Positions 6,053 through 25,615 of a stretch of 64,000 nt of DNA are shown here, in pieces. A program made the translations under genes and the position numbers. The stretch is from NCBI GenBank assembly GCA_963743635.1, contig CAVUQO010000002.1, forward strand, positions 384,001 through 448,000. The letters run 5' to 3'. Each line of letters starts with the position of its first letter. The stretch's first letter is position 1. The DNA comes from Candidatus Babeliales bacterium (GTDB taxonomy: Bacteria > Babelota > Babeliae > Babelales > Vermiphilaceae). Under the pieces are notes generated by a model, which searched no databases, had not been told where the DNA came from, and saw nothing but the letters and a program-made list of their open reading frames with translations.

Positions 6053-6228
6053 GTCATTTTTCAATCCTCTTTAGCTGAGAGCTTTCTTCGCAGCGGATAA
6101 AAATGACTGGCGAGCCTGTCCTTCGAAGCTCGGTAACGAGCGAACTAGGGCCAGTTTTTTTAAGGATTTAAGATAAAACGCTTCGCATATGGTTGCCATG
6201 TGGAATGTCCAAAAAAAGCGGGAATCGT

Positions 6229-6972: not shown

Positions 6973-6980
6973 CGCAGATC

Positions 6981-8891: not shown

Positions 8892-9770
8892 TTATTCCTT
8901 GTTGCTCTTGAGTGCATTGCAGCGTTCTGTAATTGCCGTAGTCAAAAGAGAAGACATTTTGTCCACTAAATGATTCACGCTTTCGTTATGAGCGAGTAAT
9001 TCTTCAAGACTAAGAGTTTTTTGTGGAGCCTGACTACTTGAGGAACCATTGTTGGGTGCAGTAGCAACAGGTGCTGCAGAGGTTGCAGTTGGCTGAGCAT
9101 TATTGTTGTTATTATTCTTTTTTGCAGGAATCATTGCTTGCAATACGAGTGCATCACGTTGCATTTTGAGGTTCGCAAGTTGTACTTTGAACATAGTCAT
9201 TTGAAGAAGTTCCAAAAGTTGTTGCTTTTCTTCTTCAGGCGTTAGTTTCTTTGTTTACTGTTTTGCTTCTCGTGGTGCTTGCGAACTTTCTCCTTTTTCC
9301 ATATTGGTAGGCGCTCGCGTTGTTTTCAGTTGGAGGAGTTTGTCTCTGCGTGTGGTATTGCTATTTTTGAAAAATTCCCGCGTCGTTCTTCGAAGCTCTT
9401 TGGCCACGAGGGAATACGCTTGAGCGAGATATTGTCCATTTTCGTTAATTAATTGTGCTGTTTCTTCGCTTGTGTCAACACCTGCTGCGGCGATCATTGC
9501 GGAGGTAGTGGATAGTATAGATTCTGCACGTGTGGATTGCTCACGCAAGGGGGTAGCCTCGATTGAACCTTCTGGAGAAAATAGTGTTATTAGTTCGAGG
9601 TTTCTTTGGATCGCGATTGCTTGCAGGCATTGGAGGGTGAGCCGTAGCTGCATGGAATCGGACATTACTTCTTGCGGTGCTTGTAAAATTTCGCCTTTTT
9701 CCATAGCGCGCATGGAAGAAGTGCTGAGAAGAATGAGCAGAGATAATGATAATAGGCGTGCGTGTTTCAT
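8892..9770 (-). pseudogene. Secreted helical protein split by one in-frame TAA (9255-9257)
   Basis: ORFs 9255-9770 and 8892-9215 are in the same frame: ...REAKQ*TKKLTPEEEKQQLLELLQ...; signal peptide ends SMRA|MEK. Confidence 0.6.
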
Positions 9771-10135: not shown

Positions 10136-10521
10136 TTAATGCGAACTGGATCTAAGAAGCGTTCATTACGAGATGGTGTTTTTATTATAAAAATAAGTAA
10201 AATTTCCTCCTCCGTTCGTCTCGAGTGATGCTATCCAGAACGTAGTGAGGGAGAGCATTGTGCGAGAGATATTAATCAGATAAATCCCTTTTTTAAAGGA
10301 ACGGAATGCATAGAAGCTTTATAAGGAATATTATTTTATCCACAATCTCTCGCACATTTTCCTCCATCACTATGTTCAGGATGAAAACACTCCCATGCTT
10401 CGCTAAGGCTACGCAGGGCACGCGAGACGACTGCGTCCGGCGTAGTTCCGTGAGGAACGTAGACGGAACGGGAAAGGGAATAACTTATTAAATATTAACT
10501 TTATTACGTCGAGTTCGCGTT
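10136..10521. mobile_element. MITE-like element bounded by ~18-20 bp inverted repeats, enclosing REP pair
   Basis: Left TTAATGCGAACTGGATCTAAG, right TTACGTCGAGTTCGCGTT; relatives at about 30899-31215, 58340 and 60121-60420. Confidence 0.6.
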
Positions 10522-10546
10522 GGTTAAAAAAGGATAAAGGAGATGT

Positions 10547-11014
10547 ATGCCTGGTTACAGACAACATTTAGTAGGTGGTGCAGTTGCCTATCTTTCATTG
10601 CTATTACTCTGTTCGTGGCTGAATCCAACGTTCACCACCGCGATCGAGTGGTTGGGATTTTGTTTGATTGGGTCACTGTTTCCCGATATTGATATCGGCA
10701 GTAAAGGAAGATATGTATTTTATCGTATCTTCCTTATTTTTTTACTCGTGTTTCTGGTGCGGCAAAATACCATGGCGCTCTGCCTTCTGGGCGTACTCAT
10801 GATCTTGCCGATGCTGGTTTCGCATCGTGGATTATTCCATCGATGGTGGTTTGTAACGGGATTGCCGTTTGCGGTTGCTGGGCTTTGTAGTTGTTCGTTT
10901 GCAACGTGTCAAGATGCTTTCATGCTTGATGCATTTTTCTTCGCCGCAGGCGCATTATCACATTTATATCTTGATTTAGGATTGCGCAAAATGATGCGTG
11001 TACGCTCCCGTTAA
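10547..11014 (+). CDS. Membrane-bound metal-dependent hydrolase (YdjM-like)
   Basis: H near N-terminus, FPDID, HRGLFH, SHLYLD; multiple TM segments. Confidence 0.8.
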   Translation: MPGYRQHLVGGAVAYLSLLLLCSWLNPTFTTAIEWLGFCLIGSLFPDIDIGSKGRYVFYRIFLIFLLVFLVRQNTMALCLLGVLMILPMLVSHRGLFHRWWFVTGLPFAVAGLCSCSFATCQDAFMLDAFFFAAGALSHLYLDLGLRKMMRVRSR

Positions 11015-11550
11015 TGAGATTGGTTGGATTTTGACATACGCAGGGTTAATGTTGCGCAGTAAGAAGATTCAGCTGGTATTGCCTGAGAAGGTTCTCTGCG
11101 TGAGTATGCGGAATCACCAAAATTTACGTTGGTCACTTCTTGATCCATATTCACGGTAACCTCGCGCGTTACGGATTCCTCGACGGGTTTGAGACGCATG
11201 ATCGTGTGCATGTAATGGCACTGGCATTTGATATTCGCTGCATTTTCATTGATTGCAGTAACCGTTACTATCGCTGTTGCTCCCGGTATCGTTAATGTTT
11301 TTGTCGAAGGGAGTAACGGATTTATCAATTTTCCATCTTGAGTAGGAAAATATAATCTTTGACTATCCCTGCCGTGTTTTGCACTCAAGTAAGCACCGAT
11401 AAATATCATCGCGTTGGCTTGTTTTTGAGTGTCAGCGGGAATGCTCGTGTTGCTTGAGGCATCATCCATTGCTTGGAGTGCAAAGGGGAATAGTAAGATA
11501 ATTGAGAATGTCATTCTGAGTGATGCCGTAGACATGTATCGAAGAATCAT
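11011..11550 (-). CDS. Secreted beta-rich hypothetical protein (array-like member)
   Basis: Signal peptide ending LQA|MDD; alternating hydrophobic strands. Confidence 0.7.
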   Translation of the reverse strand: MILRYMSTASLRMTFSIILLFPFALQAMDDASSNTSIPADTQKQANAMIFIGAYLSAKHGRDSQRLYFPTQDGKLINPLLPSTKTLTIPGATAIVTVTAINENAANIKCQCHYMHTIMRLKPVEESVTREVTVNMDQEVTNVNFGDSAYSRREPSQAIPAESSYCATLTLRMSKSNQSH

Positions 11551-11621
11551 GGGAGCCCTTTTTATAGTGAGGTAAAAAACTTGCAGCATCTTAGCACAAA
11601 AATAAGTTCCTGCAAAATCTA

Positions 11622-13031
11622 TTATTTTTTAGCACTTGAAGAAGCCGATACCAAGTACAGCGCAATAAAGCCGGCGATAAATCCAGGAATGAGTGGTAAA
11701 TGATTGAGCCAGAGGCCAGTTGAGGGCCAGATTGCTGCCGTTAAGCCACCAGCTAAGATACTTGCAAGTGCTCCATAGCGATTGACGCCTGTGCCGTAGA
11801 GTGATGCAATCACGAACGGGCCAAATGAGCTGCCGAGTCCGGACCATGCATAGTTTACCAAATTCATCACCGTCGTACTTTCTTCCCACGCAATACACAG
11901 CGCAATGCCTGATACCACTAATGCCGCGCAGCGAGATACGAAAATAAGTTGTTTTGAAGTGGCATTCTTTTTAAACCATTGCCCATAAATATCTTCTGCA
12001 ATTACCGATCCTGAGATCAGGATATGACTATCCATGGTGGAAAGCGTTGCAGCGAGAATGCCGCAGAGTGCAAATCCGGCGATAAGCGGTGGGAATAATT
12101 CTTTTGCCATGAAAATGAAAATGAGTTCATTATTCGCCATCTCTGGATAATAGGCAACGCCAATAATCCCAATGAATACAGCCGCGAGGAGTACCATGAT
12201 TTGCCACGATATACCAATGCGTTTTGCGTATTTGATTTTAGTAACATCATCGATTGCCATGAAATTCACTAGAATGTGCGGCTGACCAAAATAACCAAGA
12301 CCCCAGCCCAGTGCAAGCAAGAGACCGCTCAATAAATCGGTCTGTGTCGCCGCAAGGTTAAACGATAATCCTTTTGCGTAGAATGCGTCGCTAATGATAT
12401 TCCAAGAACCAAGTTTGATATAAGCAGCAACGGGTACCAACACGATCATGGCGAGTAAGAACATGCCTTGAAAAAAGTCACACCATGCAACGGCAATAAA
12501 GCCGCCAATGAGTGTGTAGAGTGCGGCACACGTTAAGGCGAGTATGATTCCTTGTTGATATTCTAATCCTAATCCAGCTTTAAAGAGCCATCCAAGACCA
12601 ACGAGTCCTGACGCAATATAAAAGGTAAAAAAGAGCACGGTCATGAGTGCGCTCACGAGGCGAATCATGCCGGACGTGTCATTAAATCGGTGTTCAAAAA
12701 ATGATGAGAGGGTAAGGCTGTGATATTTTTCAGTTGCCATGCGTAGTTTTGGCGCGATGTATTGCCAGTTAAGATACATACCAATTACGAGTCCGATTGG
12801 CATCCATGCTGCGGTTAACCCCTTCATATAAACCCAAGAGGGCACCGCGAGAAAGAGATATGCTCCCATATCGGTTGCCTGAGTAGCAACGGCAGTGACC
12901 CAATAATTGATGGATCGATTGCCAAGCATAAATTCTGAAGACGTAGCTTTATTGTGCCAAGAGACCATTAAGCCGATCAGCGTAAGGGCACAAAAATAGA
13001 TGATAAACGCAGTTACAATAAGAGTATCCAT
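11622..13031 (-). CDS. putP: Sodium/proline symporter (SSS family)
   Basis: GWGLGYFGQPHIL, AWSGLGSSFGP, about 13 TM segments. Confidence 0.9.
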   Translation of the reverse strand: MDTLIVTAFIIYFCALTLIGLMVSWHNKATSSEFMLGNRSINYWVTAVATQATDMGAYLFLAVPSWVYMKGLTAAWMPIGLVIGMYLNWQYIAPKLRMATEKYHSLTLSSFFEHRFNDTSGMIRLVSALMTVLFFTFYIASGLVGLGWLFKAGLGLEYQQGIILALTCAALYTLIGGFIAVAWCDFFQGMFLLAMIVLVPVAAYIKLGSWNIISDAFYAKGLSFNLAATQTDLLSGLLLALGWGLGYFGQPHILVNFMAIDDVTKIKYAKRIGISWQIMVLLAAVFIGIIGVAYYPEMANNELIFIFMAKELFPPLIAGFALCGILAATLSTMDSHILISGSVIAEDIYGQWFKKNATSKQLIFVSRCAALVVSGIALCIAWEESTTVMNLVNYAWSGLGSSFGPFVIASLYGTGVNRYGALASILAGGLTAAIWPSTGLWLNHLPLIPGFIAGFIALYLVSASSSAKK

Positions 13032-13104
13032 AAAGACCTCATAGGTTTATAGGAAAATATTTTTTTTAATAGGGCAAGATTAGGTATTAGGAAAAGGGTA
13101 CCCG

Positions 13105-13176
13105 TTAGGGACGGGATACGCAAGGCCTTGCTTGAATGGGGCAAGAGATAAGAAGAAGCGCGATGGCATACTTCAT
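13105..13176 (-). pseudogene. 5' remnant paralog of the 13240-13725 gene
   Basis: MKYAIALLLISCPIQARPCVSRP*RVPF resembles neighbour MKHGITLLLLISCTTHTAPSGSRPQPVPL. Confidence 0.6.
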
Positions 13177-13239
13177 AAAGAACCTTTCCTAACTTGGAAA
13201 TAAAAACAACATCATTTTAGCAGATTGAGAGGAGTATGG

Positions 13240-13725
13240 CTATTGTTTTTGAAATACTGAAATCCTATCTGCCAGAATCCTGAGTGTACAGGATAGGTGA
13301 GGGAGAACTCTTTCAAATGAGGTGCCGTCTTGGGCTAAGTAATCGAATGTCACCATTTTAGCTTCTTGTATCACTTCAATTCCCGATTGAGTTCTTTTTT
13401 GTATGGAGTACATGATGGTTAGGATTGATTTTAGGGAAAGGGGAAGTTGTACGCGCTGGTCTGGATTAAAAGAGAGATTTGCCGATTCTATATTTACGCT
13501 ATACCTATCATAGGGTTGTGGCGGCTTTTGGGCGGGTTTGAGCGTATTATCATTAAGATCAATATAAGAATATTTTCCGGTATAAATCGTGTCCTGGGAG
13601 TCATTGTCTACGAGAGTTGGTGTGACATATAGGTATTGTAAGGGCACGGGTTGGGGGCGTGAACCAGATGGCGCAGTGTGTGTGGTGCAAGAGATGAGCA
13701 GAAGGAGGGTGATACCGTGCTTCAT
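13240..13725 (-). CDS. Secreted beta-rich hypothetical protein (array member)
   Basis: Signal peptide; shared strand pattern. Confidence 0.75.
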   Translation of the reverse strand: MKHGITLLLLISCTTHTAPSGSRPQPVPLQYLYVTPTLVDNDSQDTIYTGKYSYIDLNDNTLKPAQKPPQPYDRYSVNIESANLSFNPDQRVQLPLSLKSILTIMYSIQKRTQSGIEVIQEAKMVTFDYLAQDGTSFERVLPHLSCTLRILADRISVFQKQ

Positions 13726-13884
13726 AACTATTTCATCCTAAAGAGTGTCCATAACAAACTTATTATGATTTTATGTGAAAATATAACGCTAGTGAGTATA
13801 GCAGTCTCGATACTTTTTGTAAGAAGGTCGGGCGATATAATGAATTTTAATTCGTTATATGTTTAACCATTGGAGAGAAATTGG

Positions 13885-14346
13885 CTAGTTTTCGAGCGGT
13901 TGGACGACTAAGAGCTTTCTCGTGTTTTTTATTGAGATCTCGAGATCTATCTTTTGCCCGTCATGGACTACAGTATCGGAGTGGTCTTCCGTACGATTAT
14001 GACCCACTTTAAATAATTTTTGCTCAGAATAGAGACGAGTGGAATCATTGCGGTCACCTTTTCTCAGGGAGTATTTTACGAGCATTTCTGAAAATCTCTT
14101 GTCTAGTGTTATGCTTACTATTTTAGCAGTGAGAAAGTAGTCACTTGTTTGGGGTTCCGTTTGCCATCCTTGGAGTTTGAGTTCGTCATTAACCACTCTG
14201 TGATATACCTCTTGATTGTAGAGAACCTGCTTGCTCGATAAAATTTGTGTAGCGATTGTATATTCTTGTTCTATTTCTGTTTTTATTTCCATAGCATTGA
14301 GCATGAAGGGCGTGCATAGAAATATCAGGGACAGTATGTGTATCAT
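13885..14346 (-). CDS. Secreted beta-rich hypothetical protein (array member)
   Basis: Start MIHILSL at 14346; signal ends LNA|MEI. Confidence 0.75.
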   Translation of the reverse strand: MIHILSLIFLCTPFMLNAMEIKTEIEQEYTIATQILSSKQVLYNQEVYHRVVNDELKLQGWQTEPQTSDYFLTAKIVSITLDKRFSEMLVKYSLRKGDRNDSTRLYSEQKLFKVGHNRTEDHSDTVVHDGQKIDLEISIKNTRKLLVVQPLEN

Positions 14347-14419
14347 GATGAACCTTTTGTGGCTGTGAATAGTAAATAATGCTTTATTATAGCATGTTTT
14401 TGCCATCATGTGAATAATC

Positions 14420-14539
14420 TCAAGTAAAAACCGGACCTGATAGTTTCTCAGATTCCATTGCATTGAGTGCAAGGGGTCCCGTCGAAAAGCTGAGGATAAG
14501 GATGATCGGGATGGGGAGGGTGCGAGTCCGCAGATTCAT
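14420..14539 (-). pseudogene. 39-aa signal-peptide-only remnant or micro-protein
   Basis: MNLRTRTLPIPIILILSFSTGPLALNA|MESEKLSGPVFT* with AAGGA RBS. Confidence 0.5.
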
Positions 14540-14553
14540 AAATAATCCTTTAA

Positions 14554-15020
14554 TTAATTCTCTTTATCCAATATCAGGTGCTCTGCTTTAATCACTGCTA
14601 AGTATTGTGTATATGATGATTCTTGAGCTATACCAATGGTAAGTTCTTCTCCGAAGGGAACGGTGATCGTTGCGGAATTCACCTCTTTTGGACATAAGTT
14701 CGAAATTGTTTTGCTTAGCTCCCATACATTCTTACTACAGCCTGGTTGGATTCATCTTCATCGATGGACTCCATGCAGCGGACGAGGTGTGGTGAGAAAA
14801 AAAGTGTGAGAATCAGGCCCTTCGACAGTATTCCTACAGGGCTCAGAATGAGCGGGAAAGTAATGATATTTTTGAAAGACATGATAATTTTTTCGTTGTT
14901 AGATTTGTGTTTCCTGCGCTTTTTTCAAAAGTAGCTTTATGGTAAGTATATGTTTAATTGCAGCTGTTGGGTAGGGATTTTCTTGTATTCCCCAATGTAA
15001 ATGGATGCCCCAAATTCATA
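14554..15020 (-). pseudogene. Decayed array member with REP insertion (~14817-14857)
   Basis: C-terminal frame ...WELSKTISNLCPKEVNSATITVPFGEELTIGIAQESSYTQYLAVIKAEHLILDKEN* resembles array C-termini; upstream part has stops and a CCCTTCGACA...CTCAGAATGAGCGG REP. Confidence 0.5.
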
Positions 15021-15034
15021 ATAATCATCCTTAA

Positions 15035-15556
15035 TTAAAAACTTACTGTTTGTTTAATGCTCATGATGAATTTTTCATTATCCAATGATATGAATTGCGT
15101 GTGTGGATCGCGTTGCAATAAATTAATATCCATCATTACTGGCGCGGTCTTTTGAGAAGCGGCTTCAGGATCAGTCGTTGTCTTGAGGAGAGAATATTGG
15201 AGTATGATTTTTTGAAACAATGCGCGCCAATCGCGTTGATTCACTTTGCTTCCATCGGTAATCAATTTCAAGAGTTTTGTTTGCACACCATATTCTTGAG
15301 ATGCTTGCGGCACATCGGCGTCAGTGAGGTTACGTGTGGCATACCTCGAGTCATGCGAATAAATCCCATAGGTGTGAGTATGATCATAGAGCAGTGTCTG
15401 TTCTTCTTGTTGCCTACACACGGTGATCGCGAGCGCGATGGTTATAAGAGGTTTTTGAGGGGGCATTGCGGGTTTAGAAATTCTTAGACCTGCATGCACA
15501 TGAGATATGAAAAATAATCCATGCATGACAGGAATAATGAGAGCTTTTTTAATCAT
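15035..15556 (-). CDS. Secreted beta-rich hypothetical protein (array member)
   Basis: Signal ends VHA|GLRISK. Confidence 0.75.
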   Translation of the reverse strand: MIKKALIIPVMHGLFFISHVHAGLRISKPAMPPQKPLITIALAITVCRQQEEQTLLYDHTHTYGIYSHDSRYATRNLTDADVPQASQEYGVQTKLLKLITDGSKVNQRDWRALFQKIILQYSLLKTTTDPEAASQKTAPVMMDINLLQRDPHTQFISLDNEKFIMSIKQTVSF

Positions 15557-15702
15557 AACAATCCTTATTATAAAAATCAGATCCATTGCAGACCCGATCC
15601 AGGGTAATGATTGTCTGCCAAGTGGGTCAAGAGTTTAGTCTTGCTGCGTAAAATTTACCGCATTAGGCCTTTGTTACAGTCTTTTCATCGTTTCAGAAGA
15701 AA

Positions 15703-16173
15703 TTATTTTTTGATGGTGCTTTGAATGGTTACCTGTATCGGCTGGCCGAATTCATCGTGCATCGATAATGGATATGTTTTGGCACTTGAGGCATTAAGGG
15801 GAATTTTTATTGTGCCAACAGCCGATGGGCCTTCTACTTTTTTTACTTTGCATTCGAATTCGGCATAGCCTGTATCGCGATCGACTTCTTGGAGTTCTAT
15901 TTCTAAATTATAACTTTCGGTATCTTGATGGCCAGCCAAGAGCCCGCCAGTTGTAGGCACTAAGGTATCAGATTGTCCTTTGAAATATAGAAATCTTGCA
16001 ACGCTGCGCGTGCCATTCTTTTGAGGAATTTTCATTTCAGCAACGATATTCATTTGCGATGGCAGAGAATGTAACATGAGAGAGTTGAATGCACGCATCG
16101 CTGCATTGTCATAACGCTGCATTGCATGGCTGACAGCGGGAAGTAATAATAGGAGTGCTAAAAAATGTCTCAC
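15703..16173 (-). CDS. Secreted beta-rich hypothetical protein (array member)
   Basis: GTG start after AAGGA; signal ends SHA|MQR. Confidence 0.75.
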   Translation of the reverse strand: MRHFLALLLLLPAVSHAMQRYDNAAMRAFNSLMLHSLPSQMNIVAEMKIPQKNGTRSVARFLYFKGQSDTLVPTTGGLLAGHQDTESYNLEIELQEVDRDTGYAEFECKVKKVEGPSAVGTIKIPLNASSAKTYPLSMHDEFGQPIQVTIQSTIKK

Positions 16174-16390
16174 TAATTTTCCTTGGTTCTTAACATATTG
16201 AAGAATAAATGCTATATAAACTCGATTTATAGTATCAAAGTAGACATTTTTATTCAATGATTAGGAGGAAATAGACCTTTATATATTCATAGTATGACTT
16301 AGAAAATGAATGCGATTTACAATGGCCTTATATTGTAATCGAAAAAAAGTATTTAAATGTTATGAAGATATCTTAATGAAAGAATAACTA

Positions 16391-17431
16391 ATGAAAAAAT
16401 CACTATCAATACTGGTATTAGCACTTGCAATATCAGCGAACGCATACGCAGCAGAAGTAAGTACCTTCAGTGAACATGCGATCATATTCTCAGGCAATGC
16501 AACGAAAGAGTTGGCGCAAAGTATAGCGGACTACTTGGGAGTCAATCTAGGTTCGGCGATCGTATCAAAATTTAATGATGGAGAAATCCAGATCCAGGCG
16601 CAGGAAAGTGTGCGGGGTAAGGATGTCTTTATCGTGCAATCAACCTGCCATACTGTAACCCAAAGCGTGAATGATAACTTGATGGAATTATTCTTGCTCA
16701 TTCGTACTATGAAGCGAGCATCGGCCGCAAGCATTACAATCGTTATCCCCTACTATGGTTATGCACGGCAAGATCGCAAAGCGATGTCTCGCGTGCCAAT
16801 TTCCGCAGCGGACGTTGCAATGATGTTAGAAGAAGGTGGTGCCGATCGCGTGTTAACGATCGATTTACACTGCGGACAAATTCAAGGGTTTTTCCGTAAT
16901 GTACCGGTTGACAACTTATTCTCATCGCCGATTTTTATCGACTATTTTGTAAACAAACAACTCGATAACGTGGTGGTGGTTTCTCCCGATGCAGGCGGCG
17001 TGGATCGTGCGTATAAGTTTGCACAACAATTGCGCAAAAAAGGCGTACCTGCTGAAATGGCGCTCATTAGCAAACGTCGCGCAAGCGCGGGCGTCATTGA
17101 ATCGATGTATTTGATTGGTGATGTGAATGGCGCTGATGCGATTATTGTTGATGATATTTGTGATACGGCAGGAACGCTAGTCAAGGCTGCGCAATTGCTC
17201 AAAGATAATGGTGCGCGTCGCGTGTTTGCGGTCATTCCGCACGGAGTCTTTTCGGGCAATGCACTCGATAAGATTCGTAAATCAGTGATTTGCGAAATGG
17301 TGATTGCAGATACCGTTCCATTGCGCGAGCAAGCGCCAGACAATCTCGTCGTTCTTTCAGTGAGTAAGTTATTGGGCGATGCGATATTGCGCATTTATAA
17401 CGGCAATTCGGTATCTGCATTGTTTGACTAA
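16391..17431 (+). CDS. prs: Ribose-phosphate pyrophosphokinase with N-terminal signal-peptide-like extension
   Basis: FNDGE, PYYGYARQDRK, DLHCGQIQGFF, VSPDAGG, DDICDTAGTL; N-terminus MKKSLSILVLALAISANAYA|AE. Confidence 0.95.
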   Translation: MKKSLSILVLALAISANAYAAEVSTFSEHAIIFSGNATKELAQSIADYLGVNLGSAIVSKFNDGEIQIQAQESVRGKDVFIVQSTCHTVTQSVNDNLMELFLLIRTMKRASAASITIVIPYYGYARQDRKAMSRVPISAADVAMMLEEGGADRVLTIDLHCGQIQGFFRNVPVDNLFSSPIFIDYFVNKQLDNVVVVSPDAGGVDRAYKFAQQLRKKGVPAEMALISKRRASAGVIESMYLIGDVNGADAIIVDDICDTAGTLVKAAQLLKDNGARRVFAVIPHGVFSGNALDKIRKSVICEMVIADTVPLREQAPDNLVVLSVSKLLGDAILRIYNGNSVSALFD

Positions 17432-17545
17432 CCCTTCGTGACAGCCTGAGGGTGCCGTAAGTCATCTTACTCCGCATCCTTCCGTCTTCGCCCCGGTCAT
17501 CCTGAGGCCCGAAGGGATCGAAGGACGTCGGACTACGTCGTCACA
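17431..17545. repeat. Nested REP-like cluster
   Basis: CCCTTCG, TCATCCTGAG...TCGAAGG modules. Confidence 0.65.
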
Positions 17546-17644
17546 TTTTTCATATCACGTCCTTCTCTGCGCTGCGGAATGTTATAATAAACCCCCAGGA
17601 TTAATCGTCCTGGGCTTTTCTATTAACGCGAACTATAGTGTTTT

Positions 17645-18154
17645 TTAATGTAGATATTCTGAGCTTGGATATATTTCTATGCGTAGTAAAAAAGCGTCAT
17701 AACCACGTTCCTGGAATCTTTCTTCATGCTGAATTTTAGATTGCGCATGCAACGGAAGCACTATAGATTGTGCCTGGTGCAGGATAACAGGTTCATCATT
17801 TTCTTTTCTTTTGCTGAGTGCATATTGCAGCGCAGCGTTTCGAGTAGTTGGGCATATCCCGAGCTTTACTTCTGCGCTATAGGTATAGTTTTGGTTGTCT
17901 TCCCCATTTTCTGTTGGGTCAGATTTTCCTGGGTTATCGGCATTCATTAAATAGCCTTTTTCTTTATAGAGCGTAGGTCGCAGAGCATCATCGACAGTGT
18001 ATTGTGACATCTTTATAAAAAAATCTTCTTGAGTCTTCTCATTGATCAGATGCACTGACATGACAAGGTGCTTTATAGCACCTGGTGGAGAGCTCTTGGG
18101 CCCCGCTTCAAGCGTCAAGGGCAAGAGTAGCAGTAATCGAGCAATATGTGTCAT
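17645..18154 (-). CDS. Secreted beta-rich hypothetical protein (array member)
   Basis: Signal ends LEA|GPKSS. Confidence 0.75.
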   Translation of the reverse strand: MTHIARLLLLLPLTLEAGPKSSPPGAIKHLVMSVHLINEKTQEDFFIKMSQYTVDDALRPTLYKEKGYLMNADNPGKSDPTENGEDNQNYTYSAEVKLGICPTTRNAALQYALSKRKENDEPVILHQAQSIVLPLHAQSKIQHEERFQERGYDAFLLRIEIYPSSEYLH

Positions 18155-18312
18155 GAACTTCCCTTTTTAAAGCACTATGAACATGTCCGATTGAGCATTA
18201 TAGATGAGCTCGGATGGTTACACAAGTAAATGCGGGATAAGGAGCATGCAAAGTGCCATTCTAAAAGCTGCACGCAGCTCTGATTGCATTGAGTAATCTT
18301 CTTTTTGAGAGC

Positions 18313-18780
18313 TTAAGGAAGAGCTTTTACTTGGTATTTTATTGCTGCAGACCCATCATCATGATTTTTACATACGCTTAATAATTCTATTAAATACTTC
18401 TTAGATTGAATCGTGGGATCACGAGGCAATGTAGAGCAGGTGATTGCTTGAGGTTTATTATGCTTCCTCTCATGGTCAATAAGGTCTATGAAAAGAGATG
18501 TGAGCCCATTCGTGCGTATAAAATCATGACCGTAAAGATCCATGGTGACTTGTGCTGCGGTGATTATGAAATCATCAACATACGGAACGGGCATTTCGAG
18601 TGCTGCTCTTTCCGCCATTGGTCCAGGCCTTGGTGCTGGTTGATCTTTACCAGCCATAACGGTGAGTGGAAAAAGCAAGCAGAGCATGGCGAGTGAAAAT
18701 ATATTATTCATCCTGAGTAATGCGGTACGCATGTATCGACTGCGTCCGACGAAGTTTTTAAATGTAGACGGAAGGGTCAT
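18313..18780 (-). CDS. Secreted array member, C-terminally short, with in-frame REP insertion at 5' end
   Basis: Signal ends VMA|GKD; 69-bp REP between ATG 18780 and ATG 18711. Confidence 0.65.
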   Translation of the reverse strand: MTLPSTFKNFVGRSRYMRTALLRMNNIFSLAMLCLLFPLTVMAGKDQPAPRPGPMAERAALEMPVPYVDDFIITAAQVTMDLYGHDFIRTNGLTSLFIDLIDHERKHNKPQAITCSTLPRDPTIQSKKYLIELLSVCKNHDDGSAAIKYQVKALP

Positions 18781-18819
18781 GGGATCCTTATTGTTCGGTC
18801 CGTGGTGATAATGAGATTT

Positions 18820-19383
18820 TTAATCAATGAGTTGTTGGTAGGCGTTAATCATGAGTATAACCGTATCTCGAGGGATTAGATGGTCCAGTTCGGTTTCAAT
18901 GATACATACATGCATTGCCTCAGGACCAATATCTAAATGTATCGCATCGTATTTATTCACATTGACTGCATCACTTCTGGCAATTATGGTGCGGTCAGGG
19001 TTAACGTTTACCGTTGTGATAGCAAGTTGTGTGTTGAGGATATAGTCGCAATATACTTGATAATTCGATTGATCTACATCTATTGCCGATGTTTTGACCG
19101 TATATTTTTCGCGCCATGCAGCTATCTTGCGTTCAGCATTATCGGCATGAATTTTTCTTTTATCGTCATTACTATCAAGATGAAATTCATCGTAACATTC
19201 GAATGTATCATCGTGGTTGCGGCGATAGTATGCCTGATGGGAAAAGATTGTTTCGCGCGTGGTGGTATTGATAAGCGCCGATGCGATTACTATTTTTGCA
19301 AGAGGGGGTGCGGATGGAAGCCCCGCTTCCATTGCATTAAGCGCAAGAGAAAAGAGCAACAGAGGTGCGCATATTTTTTTCAT
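18820..19383 (-). CDS. Secreted beta-rich hypothetical protein (array member)
   Basis: Signal ends LNA|MEA. Confidence 0.75.
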   Translation of the reverse strand: MKKICAPLLLFSLALNAMEAGLPSAPPLAKIVIASALINTTTRETIFSHQAYYRRNHDDTFECYDEFHLDSNDDKRKIHADNAERKIAAWREKYTVKTSAIDVDQSNYQVYCDYILNTQLAITTVNVNPDRTIIARSDAVNVNKYDAIHLDIGPEAMHVCIIETELDHLIPRDTVILMINAYQQLID

Positions 19384-19479
19384 GAAAACCTTGTGAATGA
19401 AAAGTATTAATACAACGTGACAAGTTTATCACAATTTAATGCGTCATAAAAGTGAATTGTGCTGATGTGTAATACAAAA

Positions 19480-19989
19480 TTAGTCGATCGTTTCTACACT
19501 ATCATCATCGGCAAGGGACGTCATAGCGATATCATTCTCGTTTCTTATATTGATGAGTGAAACTTTGAATTTTAAGAGCATGTCATCATCTAATTTTGTG
19601 GTGACTGTGCGACCAAATTTGATTTCTATAGGGTACTCTTTGGGCATAGCGCCTTTACCCAATCGTACCCAACAGCTTAATGACGCAGTTTTTTCTGCTT
19701 GATTGAAGGTAGCATTCTCGATGGTGATGCGATTATCTTTAATAACTATCTCGCGCGGGGTCTCTATTTTTGTATAAGTATCATTATCGTTGTACCTATA
19801 GTTGTGACACTCCTGTGAAATTACCTGTCCACTGCGTGCAGCGCAGAGTGCTGCGTCAATACGTAAGTCTTTGTTCTTGGTGCACATACAAGGCATGCAG
19901 GCCGTGAGTATTGTTAATATGGACGTACACGGTCCAGGTATCGTGAGTAAGGGGTGTATGACGCATAGTAGGGCTATAAGACGTTTCAT
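19480..19989 (-). CDS. Secreted beta-rich hypothetical protein (array member), Cys-rich N-terminus
   Basis: AAGGAG RBS; hydrophobic leader followed by GPCTS...CMPCMC. Confidence 0.75.
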   Translation of the reverse strand: MKRLIALLCVIHPLLTIPGPCTSILTILTACMPCMCTKNKDLRIDAALCAARSGQVISQECHNYRYNDNDTYTKIETPREIVIKDNRITIENATFNQAEKTASLSCWVRLGKGAMPKEYPIEIKFGRTVTTKLDDDMLLKFKVSLINIRNENDIAMTSLADDDSVETID

Positions 19990-20019
19990 GATTTCTCCTT
20001 TTTTTAGTAAAATAACCCC

Positions 20020-20571
20020 TTAAGGATTACGATTATTCGAAATGGTTAATTCAACTTTGCGTTTGGTATCATCGGTGATGTCTAGTTTAAATGTCATTGA
20101 AAAATCGGTATGCAATGGCACTTCCACCTCTTTTTCGATGATGTGCTCGGTTGCGTACGTTTTTGTTATACATCGAATGATCACCGATTTTGAAGATTGA
20201 CCGAGTAAGCTGAGCTCTGCTTCATGGAGATATGAGGAAGGCTCAATGGTGGTTAATCTATCGGGGGTGACAACCAAAGAAGAATCATTTTTTGTTAAAT
20301 ATAAATGTTTGGCAATAGAGTGGAGGGTAGTCTGTGTTTGTGGTTGTGCACCGATTACTATTTCATTCGTGTACTGATTGCGGGCATAAGATCCTGGCAC
20401 AATACGTTTCACATAAAATTCAAGTACCGCGCTAATGCGTATTGCTGATGGAAGATCTGTTAGAAGCGATACGCTATCTGTGGTTGGAATTTTAGGGTGT
20501 GGGCGGGACATGCAAGCTCCTGCCGCAAGCAGCATTGGACATGCTGCGAACGCTAAAATAAGACGTTTCAC
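20020..20571 (-). CDS. Secreted beta-rich hypothetical protein (array member)
   Basis: GTG start; signal ends LAA|GACMSR. Confidence 0.75.
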   Translation of the reverse strand: MKRLILAFAACPMLLAAGACMSRPHPKIPTTDSVSLLTDLPSAIRISAVLEFYVKRIVPGSYARNQYTNEIVIGAQPQTQTTLHSIAKHLYLTKNDSSLVVTPDRLTTIEPSSYLHEAELSLLGQSSKSVIIRCITKTYATEHIIEKEVEVPLHTDFSMTFKLDITDDTKRKVELTISNNRNP

Positions 20572-20670
20572 GATCCCCCCTTTTTCCATTCTCATTGTTC
20601 CCTTGCATAGAAGGCTAGCACAAAGTGGATGGATAAAAAAAGATAAAGCGTCTTAGAGGCAGTTTTCGTG

Positions 20671-21160
20671 TTAAGAGTTGTTATTCATATGCTTATCATC
20701 GTGCGGGATTGACCAGGTATCATCTTGAATGGGCAGCGGTGCAAAGCTTACCTGTTTAATGATGCGTGGCCTGACCGCCTCATTGATTGGGGATAATGAG
20801 AATCGGACATACTTGGTCGGGTCTGCGGGATATGATTTGACGATGTTTTGCATGCCAAACATAATATGAGCCATCACGAGGGTGGGTTTATTGCTGCCCG
20901 TTGGTATATCATATTCAATTGCTGCATACCGAGCTTTATGATAGATCGTACACTTTTTTAAGGTGATTTTATGCTGCGTGTGAGATAAATCGTTCGATGT
21001 ATAATTACCTTGGTCATCCACAGTATAGACTGTGTGTTCTACCGCTTCTCCCGTCTCCGCTTCCTATTACACAAATAGATGCAGTCAAGTGCATGATATC
21101 TGGCCCAGCGATAATTGATAATGGATATGTCATAAGCAGCATAATAAGACGATGGTTCAT
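20671..21160 (-). pseudogene. Array member with frameshift near 21020
   Basis: MNHRLIMLLMTYPLSIIA|GPDIMHLTASIC...HSLY continues in another frame as VDDQGNYT... Confidence 0.65.
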
Positions 21161-21359
21161 AGTTTTCCCTCCACAATTACAGTATTCCCAAAAAAGGAGG
21201 GTAGCAGAATTGCTTATAATAAAAAAAGGGAATGCGTTTTTGGTACACATTCCCTGAATAGATAGGTCGTTTTTTTAACGGTTATTATTACCTGCATTAT
21301 CATTCGTTATAGAATCTATCCCAAAATTAATTTTTGACATGAAAATGAAAGGTTTTTCA

Positions 21360-21405
21360 TCTCCGTTACCCATTCGATACGCTTCGCTACTCAGGGCGAA
21401 CGGGG
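21360..21405. repeat. REP-like unit
   Basis: TACCCATTCGATACGCTTCGCTACTCAGGGCGAACGG, identical core at about 58529-58565. Confidence 0.8.
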
Positions 21406-21511
21406 AATAAATATCATTATTGAGTAATTAATTCTAAGAATCTATGAATTTTGGAGTAGGTTCATAGTCAGATGTATGCTCTGGTAGGAGCTCTGTGAGA
21501 TGCGCTTCTAT

Positions 21512-22057
21512 TCATTGCTTATCTTGGATGATATAGGCGCCCGCTTTTACGATAATGGTTGGATCATCAGTTTCATATTCTTTAAACTCATTGAATGAGA
21601 AATCTCTATTATCTTTTGTAATTGGGGCATTGAACGCGTTTAACAGAGCGATAGAGGTGCTTATGCTTTCGGTAGTACGGTTGCTTGATTCAACGGGATC
21701 ATCTTCCAGCAAAGTATCAATATCTTCTGCTATGCGTTGTTGTTCAGGGCGTGGGCGCGGATTATATATAGCCTCAAAATCTATTCGGCATGTTTTAATG
21801 TCGCCGCCGCATACAAAAACGGGAATACTATATTTCAGATCATCACTGGGTTTTTTATGTTGAGCTCCAAGACCTGTCTTTTCATTGTAGATGTTATACG
21901 CATAAGCCAAGGTTTCGTGAGTACCACTGGATGAGGCATTTTTTTTGAGTATTTCTACCATGATTTTCACCGTCAGGTCTTTGGGCTTAGAATTGGATTG
22001 CCCAGCATGGACGATGATTGGTAACAGAAGGATAAGTAAGCTGACGGCGTGTTTCAT
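21512..22057 (-). CDS. Secreted beta-rich hypothetical protein (array member)
   Basis: Signal ends VHA|GQSNSK. Confidence 0.75.
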   Translation of the reverse strand: MKHAVSLLILLLPIIVHAGQSNSKPKDLTVKIMVEILKKNASSSGTHETLAYAYNIYNEKTGLGAQHKKPSDDLKYSIPVFVCGGDIKTCRIDFEAIYNPRPRPEQQRIAEDIDTLLEDDPVESSNRTTESISTSIALLNAFNAPITKDNRDFSFNEFKEYETDDPTIIVKAGAYIIQDKQ

Positions 22058-22064
22058 AAGGATC

Positions 22065-22592
22065 CTATTCATTGCCCGGATCACTTTTTATTTCAGACAA
22101 AAGTATATGCATATGAAGCATTGGATTGGTTGGATCTTTGCAAACCAGTGGGCACTTGCCACTAAAGTCCAATCTCAACCTGTCTTCTATTCGTTGGCCA
22201 TCTTTTTGGGTAGTGTACCGCAGAGATACGGTACTCAGCAAATGTTTCTCAAAAGCAGCAGATTGTATGATTGGCGTCAGAGTATATCCGTTTGAACTGA
22301 TGTTTTTAGTATAGGTGGCAGTCGCAGGAGCGAGATTAGAAATGCCATTTTTGCAGTTTCTAAATATCGCATAGTAGCTTGCTATAACTCTGGGATCATG
22401 GTCAGGAAGATCATCAATATCGTCCGAAAGAATGTGCCAGGTAAGTTTTAAATCAACTTTGCGATCATTATCTGGTTGCGATCGCATTGTATACGATCTA
22501 TCTTGCATTGCCATCATAGTGATCGGGCAGCATGTCAGAAGTAGTCCAAAGGACGAAGACTGAAGCAGAAGGAAAATGAGTATTCGTTTCAT
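22065..22592 (-). CDS. Secreted beta-rich hypothetical protein (array member)
   Basis: Hydrophobic leader; shared strand pattern. Confidence 0.75.
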   Translation of the reverse strand: MKRILIFLLLQSSSFGLLLTCCPITMMAMQDRSYTMRSQPDNDRKVDLKLTWHILSDDIDDLPDHDPRVIASYYAIFRNCKNGISNLAPATATYTKNISSNGYTLTPIIQSAAFEKHLLSTVSLRYTTQKDGQRIEDRLRLDFSGKCPLVCKDPTNPMLHMHILLSEIKSDPGNE

Positions 22593-22646: not shown

Positions 22647-23459
22647 CTATATCTCAATCTCAAACACACGCTGAGCGTTGATGCTCGTTGCATATGCAAC
22701 TTCTTCTAATGATAAGCCGCGCAGCTGCGCAAGATATTCTGCGATGGTGCGAATTTGTGCGGGGCTGTTTTGTTTGCCGCGCATTGCTTGCGGCGGTAAG
22801 AAGGGCGCATCGGTTTCGAGAACAATTTTATCGAGCGGCACCGTGCGGGCGATTTCGCGCAGATATTCATTCTTCGGATACGTAATGATGCCGCCGAGGC
22901 CGATCACGAATCCCATCGCGATCACTTCGTTTGCAAATTCTTGATCTTCAGAAAAGCAGTGAATGATGCCGCGCGAAATTTGACCTTTATATTCTTGGAG
23001 GAATTCGAGGGTCTCGTCGCGTGCATCTCGCGTGTGCACAATTAATGCCAAATTTTCTTCCAAAGCGAGGTCAATTTGAGCACGAAATGCATCTTTTTGA
23101 CGATCCAAATTAGTATCTGGATAGTGCCTGTCCAAGCCTGTTTCGCCTATAGCGACAATTTTATTTTTTTTATGTTCTTTAACAAAACTCTTGATTTTCA
23201 AAAAATCAGTATGCCATGTTTGTGTACAGTCGTTAGGATGTATACCAACTGCAGCATGAATTGATGCATACTGACGAGCAAGTTGAATACAATTAAAACT
23301 TTCCACCAAGCTTGTACCAACGTTAATGATGGTTGTGACCCCCCGGGAGGAAGCTTCATCAACTATGGGCGCAGCAAGGCGAAGAACATCAGGAGTAATT
23401 TCTGTGTCGAATGTTTTTTTAATCATCAGGTTAATATGGCAATGTGTATCAATAAGCAT
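22647..23459 (-). CDS. tatD: TatD family hydrolase/DNase
   Basis: DTHCH, GIHP, GETGLD, HCFS, ETDAPFL. Confidence 0.95.
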   Translation of the reverse strand: MLIDTHCHINLMIKKTFDTEITPDVLRLAAPIVDEASSRGVTTIINVGTSLVESFNCIQLARQYASIHAAVGIHPNDCTQTWHTDFLKIKSFVKEHKKNKIVAIGETGLDRHYPDTNLDRQKDAFRAQIDLALEENLALIVHTRDARDETLEFLQEYKGQISRGIIHCFSEDQEFANEVIAMGFVIGLGGIITYPKNEYLREIARTVPLDKIVLETDAPFLPPQAMRGKQNSPAQIRTIAEYLAQLRGLSLEEVAYATSINAQRVFEIEI

Positions 23460-23687
23460 AGCGCTCCTTTGTAATGACGATGCATGTAGCCTTCAAGAAT
23501 TTCTTTTAGGAAATCATTGGACTCTTCTAAGTTTTGATTCATTCAATATAGAACGAAAGCTTCTAGTATTTGACAAACCGATAAATCGAACTACTATAGG
23601 GTACTAGATGACAATAAAAAATAAAGTAGAGTTGTACTGAAGTAGCAGTCTGTTTAACCATTACTTACTTAATGTAAGGAGATAAGT

Positions 23688-23975
23688 ATGAACAAGAGTG
23701 AATTAATTGATTCGCTAAGCGAAGAAACAGCTTTCAGCAAGAAAGATGTTTCTCGTGTGCTTGACTCATTGACCCGTATTGTGGAACGCACCTTGAAAAA
23801 AGGTGAAAAGGTATCTATCACTGGGTTTGGAAGCTTCTGGCTTTCAAATCGCCCAGCTCGTAAAGGTATCAATCCATCGACGAAAGAGCGCATTAACCTC
23901 CCTGCGGTTAACGTACCTCGTTTCAAAGCTGGAAAAAACTTACGAGAAGTTGTTAGATCTGTTAAAGTTCGTTAA
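23688..23975 (+). CDS. hup: HU family DNA-binding protein
   Basis: MNKSELI, GFGSF, ARKGINP, PRFKAGK. Confidence 0.95.
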   Translation: MNKSELIDSLSEETAFSKKDVSRVLDSLTRIVERTLKKGEKVSITGFGSFWLSNRPARKGINPSTKERINLPAVNVPRFKAGKNLREVVRSVKVR

Positions 23976-24109
23976 GTGAAGCTTACGCTTTAAACGCAGG
24001 TTTTACTCGCTAAGGTCGCCATTGGCGACCTTTTTTATTGGGCTTCGTAGAAAGCCTTCTTTTTATGTAGAGGGTTAACCATATGCATATAAGAAATCGA
24101 AGAGTTTCT

Positions 24110-24185
24110 CATTCCCCGCTCGCCCTGAGGGTTATGGGTCAAGTGAAACGAGACGAAAAACGTCTCGAACGGGTGCGGGGTAAAA
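24110..24185. repeat. REP-like unit
   Basis: CCCGCTCGCCCTGAGG...TCTCGAACGGGT. Confidence 0.7.
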
Positions 24186-24379
24186 GGTTATACGCTCATT
24201 AATAATCGCCAGCCTGGATCAATTAAAGCTGTCCTTTGAAGGTTTATGCGAACTAGGAATAAACTTTTCTGGCTCTTTATACGCCCTAAATCCTTCCCAA
24301 TAAGCTTGCCCATTGCATTTCTTTCGATCTGATTTACACTAAAGACCGTACGACTATGATCTAAACGCGCGGAGTTCAC

Positions 24380-25615
24380 ATGATCGATTTAGGCCTACTC
24401 AGAGAAGAACGAGAAAAGGTTATTGCCTTAATTAAGAAAAAAGAACCATCTTTTGATGCGCAAGCACTTGCGGATCTTGATGTCCAACAACGATCCCTTC
24501 GATCAGAAGTGGAAGCGTTGCGGGCTGAAAAAAACGAATTAGCACGCCAAGGCAAAGCGGGGATCACCCCTGAACTGCGCGAGCGATCGATTCACGTCAG
24601 CAAACAATTAAAAGAAAAAGAACCGCTCCTTGAAGAAGTGGAAGCACGCTTTAAGGAATTGTATCTTTCATGCCCAAATCTGATTTTGGACGATGTTCCA
24701 GCAGGGAACAAAGAATCCAATAAAGTAGTCAAAGAGTGGGGCTCAAAAAGATCATTCGATTTTCATGTGAAGAATCATGTAGAGCTGGGCGCTGAGCTTG
24801 GCTGGTTCGATTTCAATGCGGCGGTGACTATGACCGGCAGCAACTTTGTATTTTATAAGCGTGATGCCGTTAAATATATGTATGCGCTGACCATGTTCAT
24901 GCTTAAAAATAATATGAAGCATGGATTTGATCCGGTTATCCCTCCCTATATGATTAATGAAAAATCTCTAGAAGTTTCAGGGAATTTTCCTAAATTCCGT
25001 GAGCAGGTATATGCAATGCCAGCTGATGGATTATATATGTCCCCAACTTCAGAAGTAAATTTGGCAAGCATATACCGCGATCATATTTTCATGACGCAAG
25101 AATTACCAATTCGTTTGACCGCATGGTCCAGCTGTTTTAGACGCGAAGCGGGCGGTTACGGCTCAACTGAGCGTGGACTCATTCGTATTCATCAGTTTGA
25201 AAAAGTTGAACTTTACACCATTTGTACGCCAGAAAATTCACAAGATGAACAAGATCGCATGATTGCGAGTGCAGAAGATATTTTACAACAACTTGGTTTG
25301 CACTATCGCATTAGCTTATTAGCGGCACAAGATTGTTCATTCCAATCAGCAAAAACATATGACGTTGAAGTATGGTTGCCGGGCCAAAAAGCATATTATG
25401 AAGTATCATCAATTAGTAACTGTACTGATTTTCAGGCACGCCGTGGATTATTGCGATTTAAAGTAACGTCTGAAAGTAAAACAGAACTGGTTAACACCTT
25501 GAATGGTTCATCACTTGCATTACCACGCTTGATGGTGGCATTAATGGAAACCTATCAGCAAGCTGATGGCTCCATTGCAATGCCAGAGATATTGAAAAAA
25601 GAGGGTATTTTTTAA
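24380..25615 (+). CDS. serS: Serine--tRNA ligase
   Basis: PTSE, CFRREAG, GLIRIHQFEKVE, EVSSISNC, TLNGS. Confidence 0.97.
   Translation: MIDLGLLREEREKVIALIKKKEPSFDAQALADLDVQQRSLRSEVEALRAEKNELARQGKAGITPELRERSIHVSKQLKEKEPLLEEVEARFKELYLSCPNLILDDVPAGNKESNKVVKEWGSKRSFDFHVKNHVELGAELGWFDFNAAVTMTGSNFVFYKRDAVKYMYALTMFMLKNNMKHGFDPVIPPYMINEKSLEVSGNFPKFREQVYAMPADGLYMSPTSEVNLASIYRDHIFMTQELPIRLTAWSSCFRREAGGYGSTERGLIRIHQFEKVELYTICTPENSQDEQDRMIASAEDILQQLGLHYRISLLAAQDCSFQSAKTYDVEVWLPGQKAYYEVSSISNCTDFQARRGLLRFKVTSESKTELVNTLNGSSLALPRLMVALMETYQQADGSIAMPEILKKEGIF

Follow-up and report, generated by a model that had tools for sequence, protein, structure and literature searches.

How does a row of small exported proteins come to stand between two conserved genes of a bacterial genome when its members are barely recognizable as relatives of each other, and does one ancestral gene lie behind them? 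We examined this question in 64,000 nucleotides (nt) of contig CAVUQO010000002.1 (the window, whose positions are used for all coordinates given without a contig or locus name), in which 13 open reading frames (ORFs) lie on the minus strand between a tatD-like gene and the gene for a membrane protein that begins with MPGY. An initial annotation had described these ORFs as a co-oriented array of hyperdivergent secreted proteins that arose when a single beta-strand scaffold was amplified and diversified into a repertoire of binders or effectors. The present analysis shows that the genes are real, encode signal peptides, and lie at a lineage-specific locus where proteins diverge rapidly and genes are born and lost; it also supports common ancestry for part of the members and gives one confident all-beta structure model. 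We conclude that the row represents one or more new exported protein families that evolve fast and that the single scaffold is partly supported. With about even confidence, we favor the reading that it is a lineage-specific, fast-turnover cluster of small Sec-exported all-beta proteins with a putative binding role at the contact with the host. Below, members are named after their lower coordinate (Table 1), G000 is the source genome with contigs C1 to C3, G012 is one relative, and L005, L010, and L011 are loci.

Thirteen real genes encode small proteins with signal peptides

All 13 ORFs that had been proposed were present on the minus strand, each in its place. They are co-oriented, but they do not form an unbroken array: the row is interrupted by a putP-like symporter gene on the same strand, by prs on the opposite strand, and by two gene remnants. 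Using 392 long ORFs of this genome to train a codon usage model and 280 held-out genes for comparison, we obtained scores of 0.14 to 0.34 bits per codon for the called frames of the 13 ORFs (held-out genes, 0.27 ± 0.075) and negative scores for the other five frames of all of them. Because the coding score was positive in the called frame only and fell within the range of the held-out genes, the 13 ORFs are real genes with native composition. We therefore regard as extremely improbable the alternative that they are not genes at all, or are dying and functionless ones. The two remnants and the one frameshift in the row would fit that alternative, but codon scores that match real genes only in the called frame, the presence of ribosome-binding sites, orthologues at 44 to 68% identity that keep open frames in other organisms, and the absence of the frameshift from contigs assembled from sequencing runs all argue otherwise.

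The starts of the longest ORFs lay mostly too far upstream, and starts with a ribosome-binding site were used instead. With these refined starts, the products have 153 to 187 amino acids, within the range of 150 to 190 that had been claimed, except that 18313 may have only 139 and that 20671 had been listed with 116. The refined products begin with a positively charged tip and a hydrophobic core, and their signal peptides have endings such as AM, AG, or Cys. Signal peptides, which were judged by a rule of thumb and not by a dedicated predictor, had been claimed for all members. The claim held for 12 ORFs after start refinement, with scores of 1.95 to 3.21 for the hydrophobic 12-residue core; the 13th, 20671, has no signal peptide as listed but has a core when read from the ATG at 21160.

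A Cys at the end of the signal peptide is characteristic of a lipobox. By eye, lipobox-like sites are found in 13240 (LLISC), 19480 (ILTAC), and 20020 (AAGAC) and in none of the other 10 members. The cleavable signal peptides and the three lipobox-like sites imply that the products would act outside the cytoplasm. The genome has an LspA gene and two secretin genes, and we know of no sequence signal that marks the substrates of type II secretion. TM6 genomes have type II secretion genes with two copies of gspD (PMC4776705).

The mature chains are linked in part

Within the genome, BLAST, phmmer, and jackhmmer searches with the mature chains linked only 17645 and its paralogue at C2:118409-118903 (plus strand; L005 1438-1932), which lies 280 kb from the row and has 27% identity to 17645 in the mature part. 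This lone paralogue has two other small signal-peptide ORFs beside it, which are unlike it in kind. When new relatives were included, jackhmmer with the mature chains joined 15703, its four orthologues (44 to 50% identity in the mature part), 20020, and two L011 genes, and no false hit occurred among 3,338 sequences. The 20020 protein also matched the 15703 group in hhalign with a P value of 1e-6 (probability, 91%). Judged from these comparisons, 15703 and 20020 are homologous. We set aside an early chain of iterated-profile hits that had made use of the signal peptides.

The initial annotation had proposed HHalign comparisons between members. Across 21 groups, 7 of 210 pairs reached P < 0.01 and 22 reached P < 0.05, versus 0 and 7, respectively, of 360 control comparisons with 45 other exported ORFs; a second control against all 175 other candidates yielded 0 of 350 at P < 0.01. 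The linking alignments were of full length and in matching order. They connected the 17645/18820 group with the 15703/20020 group (P = 0.0099 over 110 columns), 13240 with the 17645/18820 group (P = 0.0019 over 110 columns), 18313 with the pooled profile (P = 0.0025 over 81 columns), and the profile of 17645 and its relatives with 18820 (P = 0.0015). Shuffle z scores were 4.35 for 19480 and 20020, 3.34 for 18820 and 17645, and 3.95 for 18820 and 13240, and their mean was 0.65 over 77 pairs within the family versus 0.02 over 520 pairs of a family member and a control. Two further members were marginal, namely, 22065 (P = 0.017 with the pooled profile) and 20671 (P = 0.022). Thus, of the proposal that a single scaffold was amplified and diversified, what stands is that six to seven of the 13 members are linked above every control; for four, the comparisons gave no link.

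Strand-propensity indices separated the family from controls weakly (p = 0.02 and 0.002). The shared strand pattern is collectively above controls and is not significant for single members.

One member has a confident all-beta model

Structure prediction, another of the checks suggested at the outset, was run on two members. With a 13-row family alignment, AlphaFold2 modeled mature 17645 with a predicted local distance difference test (pLDDT) score of 81.3 and a predicted template modeling (pTM) score of 0.74. The confident all-beta model has eight strands of 7 to 12 residues with short turns between them, and residues 52 to 71 form a disordered loop. The ordered strand pattern described in the initial annotation maps one to one on these eight strands, although, as said, the pattern is not significant for single members. 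Strand 4 begins with a Tyr in 11 of the 13 rows of alignment A1, and the strand 5 motif x-hydrophobic-x-Y/C-x-hydrophobic is aligned in 12. The 15703 model was of low confidence (pLDDT, 57.5); it has the same strand order, an extra N-terminal helix, and one strand fewer. On the basis of these models, a fold shared by the members is plausible.

The 17645 model was then compared with 48,161 chains in a structural scan in which a Z score of about 8 is needed, since lower values may reflect a merely common arrangement. No match reached 8; the best (Z = 6.8) was to secretin sheets. The best compact whole-domain match was to the C2 domain, a eukaryotic membrane-binding sandwich with the same number of strands and the same size (Z = 5.1 to 5.2; root mean square deviation [rmsd], 3.5 to 4.4 Å over 89 to 100 residues), and this match extends over the entire model. 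Against a relationship to C2 domains stand a Z score under the threshold, the higher score of the secretin sheets, and the absence of a Pfam C2 match. In the proposed Foldseek search, which was carried out with the 17645 model, solved structures gave only GFP-type chains (TM score, 0.24 to 0.28), and among viral models nothing was found at E ≤ 0.001 (TM score, ≤0.41). The statement that the proteins belong to no known family was supported in every library searched. Pfam, NCBIfam, and PHROG searches with the members and Pfam searches with 18 relatives gave nothing above the cutoffs. For 12 of the 13 members, no Pfam family, C2 (PF00168) included, appeared even at E ≤ 0.1, and the lone match, to DUF6075, was below the cutoff. 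Profiles A1 and A3 found only unrelated chains among the sequences of solved structures (best E, 0.011 to 0.11). No known fold is assigned to the 17645 model. The matches of the 15703 model to Siah1, USP7, SPOP, and TRAF (MATH/TRAF; Z = 3.5 to 4.3) were not used because that model is of low confidence; no MATH/TRAF match was found among the members with Pfam.

Eight long strands of 10 to 12 residues with short turns and mature sizes of about 110 to 165 amino acids would also suit 8-strand outer membrane beta-barrels of the OmpX/OmpA type, serving as variable surface antigens. The model does match the OprF N-domain (Z = 4.4) and NspA (Z = 4.3) weakly, but with an rmsd of 5.9 to 6.4 Å, which is higher than that to C2-type sandwiches (3.5 to 4.5 Å). 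A C-terminal aromatic residue is a feature of the assembly signal of outer membrane barrels, and only 1 of the 13 products, 15035, ends in F, Y, or W. Furthermore, charged residues lie on both faces of the strands by eye, no outer membrane protein family was matched in Pfam, and the row does not vary between samples. We therefore consider barrels very improbable.

Resemblances at the signal peptides and 5' ends

The members show no obvious DNA identity to each other, as had been noted, save for 28 nt with 86% identity that 19480 and 20020 have in common at the ribosome-binding site and first codons. At L011, the starts of two neighbors share 46 nt at 89% identity, and their mature parts are 15% identical. 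Two other genes there share 38 nt at 87% at the codons of the cleavage site, and the locus also contains one recent 300-nt duplicate with 86% identity.

The same tendency was seen in the proteins. The signal peptide matched or exceeded the mature part in conservation in 18 of 19 related pairs, one of which is cut by the end of the locus. Random pairs of signal peptides from this genome have a mean identity of 22.8% (99th percentile, 45%). Within the row, 13 of 78 pairs of signal peptides have at least 40% identity, compared with 6.5% for comparisons with other signal peptides of the genome. The signal peptide of 21512 shares 55% identity with that of 15703 and 45% with that of 17645, and the leader of 18313 resembles that of 11011 (45% identity between the signal peptides). 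As judged from these sequences, the pattern at the 5' ends agrees with duplication and subsequent rapid change in the mature part.

The row gains and loses genes and diverges faster than its neighbors

We searched 1.84 billion representative proteins with a profile built from the mature chains of 12 window members and the paralogue, 13 in all, and obtained 15 proteins at E ≤ 0.001. Six of these were the window's own, and one (P0004) was a variant of 19480 with 95% identity, found elsewhere. Seven were new small signal-peptide proteins: three orthologues of 15703, one of 22065 (P0009, 68% identity in the mature part), one of 15035 (P0015, 54%), and two relatives of 17645 and its paralogue. The mature parts of these seven have 44 to 68% identity to the nearest member in the genome, and P0011 has only 23% identity to 17645. 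We set aside P0013, a 1,704-amino-acid surface protein with Ig/PKD repeats, because it matches the central hairpin only, and we read that match as generic. Mature 17645 had no match in 150 genomes sampled from the same order, no relatives of 15703 were found in a scan of one genome per species, and a word-based protein search with 17645 returned only 17645 itself. ESM Atlas look-ups gave scores of 0.80 to 0.84, which serve as leads only; both include a Spirochaetota cluster of 164 amino acids with 58 members. The locus is specific to this lineage.

A metagenome scan yielded two loci, L010 and L011, and L011 is the same neighborhood in a related organism. Its order is prs, the 15703 orthologue, eight small signal-peptide ORFs, a 550-amino-acid housekeeping gene, three small ORFs, putP, and two more small ORFs, the last of which is the 11011 orthologue (11682-12068; 63% identity over 90 aligned residues). 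On the same side of prs, L011 has 14 small signal-peptide ORFs versus five genes and two remnants in the window. One of these remnants is a pseudogene in which residues 3 to 35 and 134 to 190 have 70% and 62% identity to the L011 gene, respectively, in frames -3 and -2, with about 100 codons of the middle gone (Table 1). The 550-amino-acid housekeeping-type gene inside the L011 row (6171-7823, plus strand) has no counterpart at that place in the window, which is another sign of rearrangement of the locus between relatives. Between the window and L011, the housekeeping proteins have 82.5% (prs) and 83.3% (putP) identity, versus 49% for 15703, 63% for 11011, and 23% for 13885 and its counterpart (L011 8579-9061, found with jackhmmer). 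This comparison shows that the row gains and loses genes and that the array proteins change several times faster than their neighbors.

Such a rate also bears on a different role, in which the proteins would stay in the bacterium and protect its envelope as immunity-like proteins or as inhibitors, periplasmic or lipid anchored, of lysozymes or proteases of the host. Small periplasmic beta domains of about 100 to 150 amino acids are typical of such inhibitors. Sec signal peptides throughout the row, the three lipobox-like sites together with LspA, and the lack of any visible secretion signal beyond Sec would agree with it. For proteins of this kind, however, conservation among relatives would be expected, yet the row is absent from 150 relatives and evolves far faster than its neighbors. 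In addition, no inhibitor or immunity family was matched in Pfam, NCBIfam, or solved structures, in a survey that did not include PADLOC. Envelope protection is thus, in our judgment, unlikely.

The row is nearly identical between samples

In the window, 20671 consists of 48 codons with a signal peptide from the ATG at 21160, followed by a 116-amino-acid ORF in another frame. One letter at 21057 was absent from the contigs of all three runs that cover the place (X1, X2, and X3); two of the runs belong to samples of one study, the probable source sample among them, and the third belongs to a sample of a different study. When that letter is left out, both parts of 20671 join as an intact ORF of 162 amino acids.

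In two environmental samples from different studies, the row was near-identical, with zero to one difference per piece of about 1 kb. This near-identity suggests that the divergence of the members is old and does not come from ongoing hypermutation. Run X3 also contained contigs that differed from the window by about 10% over 23010-24475 (tatD, HU, and the start of serS), which implies a second, related organism in that sample.

One scaffold or a mixed collection

Several results weigh against descent of the whole row from one scaffold with continued diversification. The mature parts of 11011, 13885, 15035, and 21512 have no link to the rest, and those of two more members are marginal. The P values of the links (0.002 to 0.01) are modest, many small-profile comparisons were made, and the pairs are not independent. 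Leave-one-out profiles ranked the omitted member between 1 and 530 among 3,316 ORFs (median, 33), an enrichment in which none was individually significant, and profiles of the central hairpin block alone did worse. A first hhalign comparison of the two main groups was not significant (P = 0.13). On the structural side, the 15703 model is unreliable and its weak matches differ from those of 17645, and both models were built on an alignment of the members themselves, and so do not test the hypothesis independently. The similar signal peptides could also stem from a common constraint on export or from unrelated genes that exchanged their 5' ends. Finally, there was no sign of ongoing hypervariation between samples.

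These points raise the alternative that the row is a mixed collection of several unrelated orphan exported families at a recombination-prone locus, with a strand pattern that is generic to small beta-rich exported proteins. The four unlinked and two marginal members, the failure of leave-one-out tests for single members, and the absence of common top matches between the two structure models speak for this alternative. So do the genome's stock of about 180 small signal-peptide ORFs and its other rows of them, and the dispersed repeats that flank and enter the locus could drive rearrangement. However, the links within the set exceed all 710 control comparisons at P < 0.01, over the full length and in matching order, and neighbors share 5' DNA even though their mature parts cannot be aligned. 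Moreover, the alignment of all members yielded a confident model and not noise. We hold the mixed collection to be a tentative and somewhat unlikely alternative.

A proposed history and its counterparts elsewhere

Under the reading that we favor, at least half of the genes would go back to a single ancestor of about 150 codons, which would have encoded an 8-strand beta domain and multiplied locally, through tandem duplication, at a plastic spot flanked by two conserved genes. The signal-peptide end would stay recognizable after every such event, and the mature domain would diverge past the reach of ordinary sequence search. Loss of copies is evident from the pseudogenes and from the relative's different gene content. 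Sec would carry the products over the inner membrane by means of their cleavable signal peptides, and some of them may be lipid anchored. From the periplasm they might exit through type II-like secretin machinery or in membrane vesicles and then, where the bacterium meets its protist host, serve as binding modules, with pressure from that host as the presumed driver of the divergence.

To our knowledge, Dependentiae live only inside protists, and almost nothing is known of the proteins with which they act on their hosts. Exported orphans account for a large part of their genes. In Chromulinavorax destructans (Dependentiae), 44% of the coding sequences have signal peptides and this set is enriched in orphans (PMC6561590). 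The members resemble these orphans in belonging to the same phylum by seryl-tRNA synthetase (SerRS) and in being small signal-peptide proteins without a known family, and they differ in forming a co-oriented row that comes partly from one ancestor, in having a predicted common 8-strand domain, and in lying at a defined break in gene order. A full-text literature search found no description of such a family.

Rows of this kind have recognizable counterparts in other organisms. The lpl lipoprotein and ssl clusters of Staphylococcus aureus consist of tandem exported paralogues that are easily recognized and belong to named families. They share with the row the co-orientation of some 10 genes for exported proteins, local duplication, and a gene number that varies between strains or relatives, whereas most pairs in the row have less than 20% identity and no family name. 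Cone snail toxin superfamilies combine a conserved signal sequence with a hypervariable mature part. The row is similar in that conservation of the signal peptide equals or exceeds that of the mature part (18 of 19 pairs) and in that 5' DNA of 86 to 89% identity accompanies mature parts of 15 to 16%. The organism and the type of protein differ, and exchange of 5' ends is an alternative cause here. By these analogies, tandem, fast-diverging exported paralogues that keep their signal peptides would be an instance of a phenomenon known elsewhere. What is new is the protein family, a possibly new fold, and the setting in Dependentiae with sharply defined borders.

The MAX effectors of fungi are small secreted beta-sandwiches of six strands that keep their strand order while sequence similarity is nearly lost. 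The members resemble them in being small secreted beta proteins with a kept strand order, expanded in a host-dependent organism. In contrast, the row is bacterial, its domain has eight strands, no conserved disulfide was seen, and the fold comes from the model of one member only. By analogy, the row might be a bacterial counterpart of such structure-conserved, sequence-unrelated effector families, with one previously unseen 8-strand beta-sandwich that would be duplicated in tandem with its signal peptide retained, be pushed by the protist host to diverge past recognition by sequence, be exported by Sec and type II secretion, and bind host membranes or proteins. We regard this more specific reading as doubtful. 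C2 and MATH domains abound in protists, and if this reading were true, the weak likeness to them would be meaningful.

The locus is tractable: its family has no relatives in the libraries searched, one fold is predicted with confidence, related organisms provide orthologues for comparison, and between its fixed borders genes can be seen to arise, diverge rapidly, and decay. Should a single fold prove common to the members, many symbiont "orphans" may be old families in disguise, and the family would provide concrete candidates for host contact. If they do not, the row is still a clear example of a reduced genome that keeps a region for fast gene turnover.

Borders, neighboring genes, and repeats

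The source genome comprises 1.45 Mb. Its SerRS has its closest matches in Candidatus Dependentiae/Babeliales (60 to 69% identity), compared with at most 52% in other phyla, and the assignment to Dependentiae (Babeliales-like) is based on this protein. The 13-gene row spans exactly the 11.6-kb space between tatD and the MPGY membrane protein gene (Table 1). These two genes are neighbors in all four relatives examined (at the family level) and are directly adjacent in three of them; in the fourth, G012, putP and one small gene lie between them. The membrane protein begins with MPGYRQHL in the window and with MPGY.GHL in the relatives. The names tatD-like, putP-like, and prs are presumptive and were assigned by eye from the sequences. 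Within the row, the start of 21512 lies 7 nt after the stop of 22065.

Table 1. Positions of the row members, remnants, and flanking features in the window
Feature	Coordinates	Strand	Description	Evidence or relationship
MPGY membrane protein gene	10547..11014	+	Left flank	Conserved adjacency with tatD
11011	11011..11550	-	Member, 179 aa; start 11550; signal peptide ends ...ALQAM	L011 orthologue
putP-like gene	11622..13031	-	Presumed sodium/solute symporter, 469 aa; housekeeping	83.3% identity to L011 copy
13240	13240..13725	-	Member, 161 aa; lipobox-like LLISC	hhalign link to 17645/18820 profile
13885	13885..14346	-	Member, 153 aa; start 14346; signal peptide ends ...MLNAM	Codon score
Remnant	14420..14539	-	39 codons; signal peptide ending GPLALNAM, then stop	Resembles start of L011 4158-4706 by eye
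Pseudogene	14557..14828	-	Decayed orthologue of L011 2586-3158	tblastn, two pieces in different frames
15035	15035..15556	-	Member, 173 aa; signal peptide ends ...VHAG; sole aromatic C terminus (F)	Codon score
15703	15703..16173	-	Member, 156 aa; GTG start 16173; signal peptide ends ...SHAM	Homologous to 20020 by sequence
prs	16391..17431	+	Presumed ribose-phosphate pyrophosphokinase-like; splits row	82.5% (L011) and 81.3% (L010) identity
17645	17645..18154	-	Member, 169 aa; signal peptide ends ...LEAG	Confident AlphaFold2 model
18313	18313..18780	-	Member, 155 aa (139 aa if start is 18732)	Ends after alignment strand 5
18820	18820..19383	-	Member, 187 aa	Profile link to 17645 and relatives
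19480	19480..19989	-	Member, 169 aa; long leader; lipobox-like ILTAC	Linked to 20020
20020	20020..20571	-	Member, 183 aa; GTG start 20571; lipobox-like AAGAC	Homologous to 15703 group by sequence
20671	20671..21160	-	Member, frameshifted in window; 162 aa intact in run contigs	Run-contig comparison
Intergenic stretch	21227..21510	.	Terminator-like hairpin (21227-21255, minus) and short dispersed repeat	Contig joints here
21512	21512..22057	-	Member, 181 aa; start 22057; signal peptide ends ...VHAG	Codon score
22065	22065..22592	-	Member, 175 aa; first gene of row	Orthologue P0009
tatD-like gene	22647..23459	-	Presumed hydrolase; right flank	Conserved adjacency with MPGY gene

The prs-like protein has a hydrophobic N terminus that resembles a signal peptide and is kept in its counterparts at L011 322-1386 and L010 78-1106; such a segment is unexpected in an enzyme that makes nucleotides in the cytoplasm. 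Scans for promoter-like and terminator-like sequences gave numbers near the shuffle expectation.

Dispersed repeats occupy the intergenic stretches 10150-10546, 21260-21510, and 23976-24379. One repeat unit has about 350 to 400 nt, with copies at C1:17189-17530 and C2:106800-107196, and shorter units of 26 to 100 nt occur in about 20 partial copies genome-wide. By blastn, the short repeat of 21227..21510 has about 19 further partial copies in the genome, of 26 to 100 nt. Run contigs break or join at the dispersed repeats, where depth is higher. An inverted repeat lies at 10223-10270/10345-10392.

A crude filter returned 183 small signal-peptide ORFs in the genome, so that small size and a signal peptide are common features. 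Other co-oriented rows of such ORFs are found at C3:361535-366429, C3:348010-350750, and C2:343547-345419, among more, and they include a set that is rich in glycine and histidine. These further rows suggest that rows of small signal-peptide ORFs are a general habit of this genome. Just outside the row, a gene at 9255-9770 (minus strand) encodes a 171-amino-acid signal-peptide protein that is helical by eye and is not a family member. A 41-nt stretch is repeated near both ends of this gene (83% identity), and MEKGE..QAP occurs twice.

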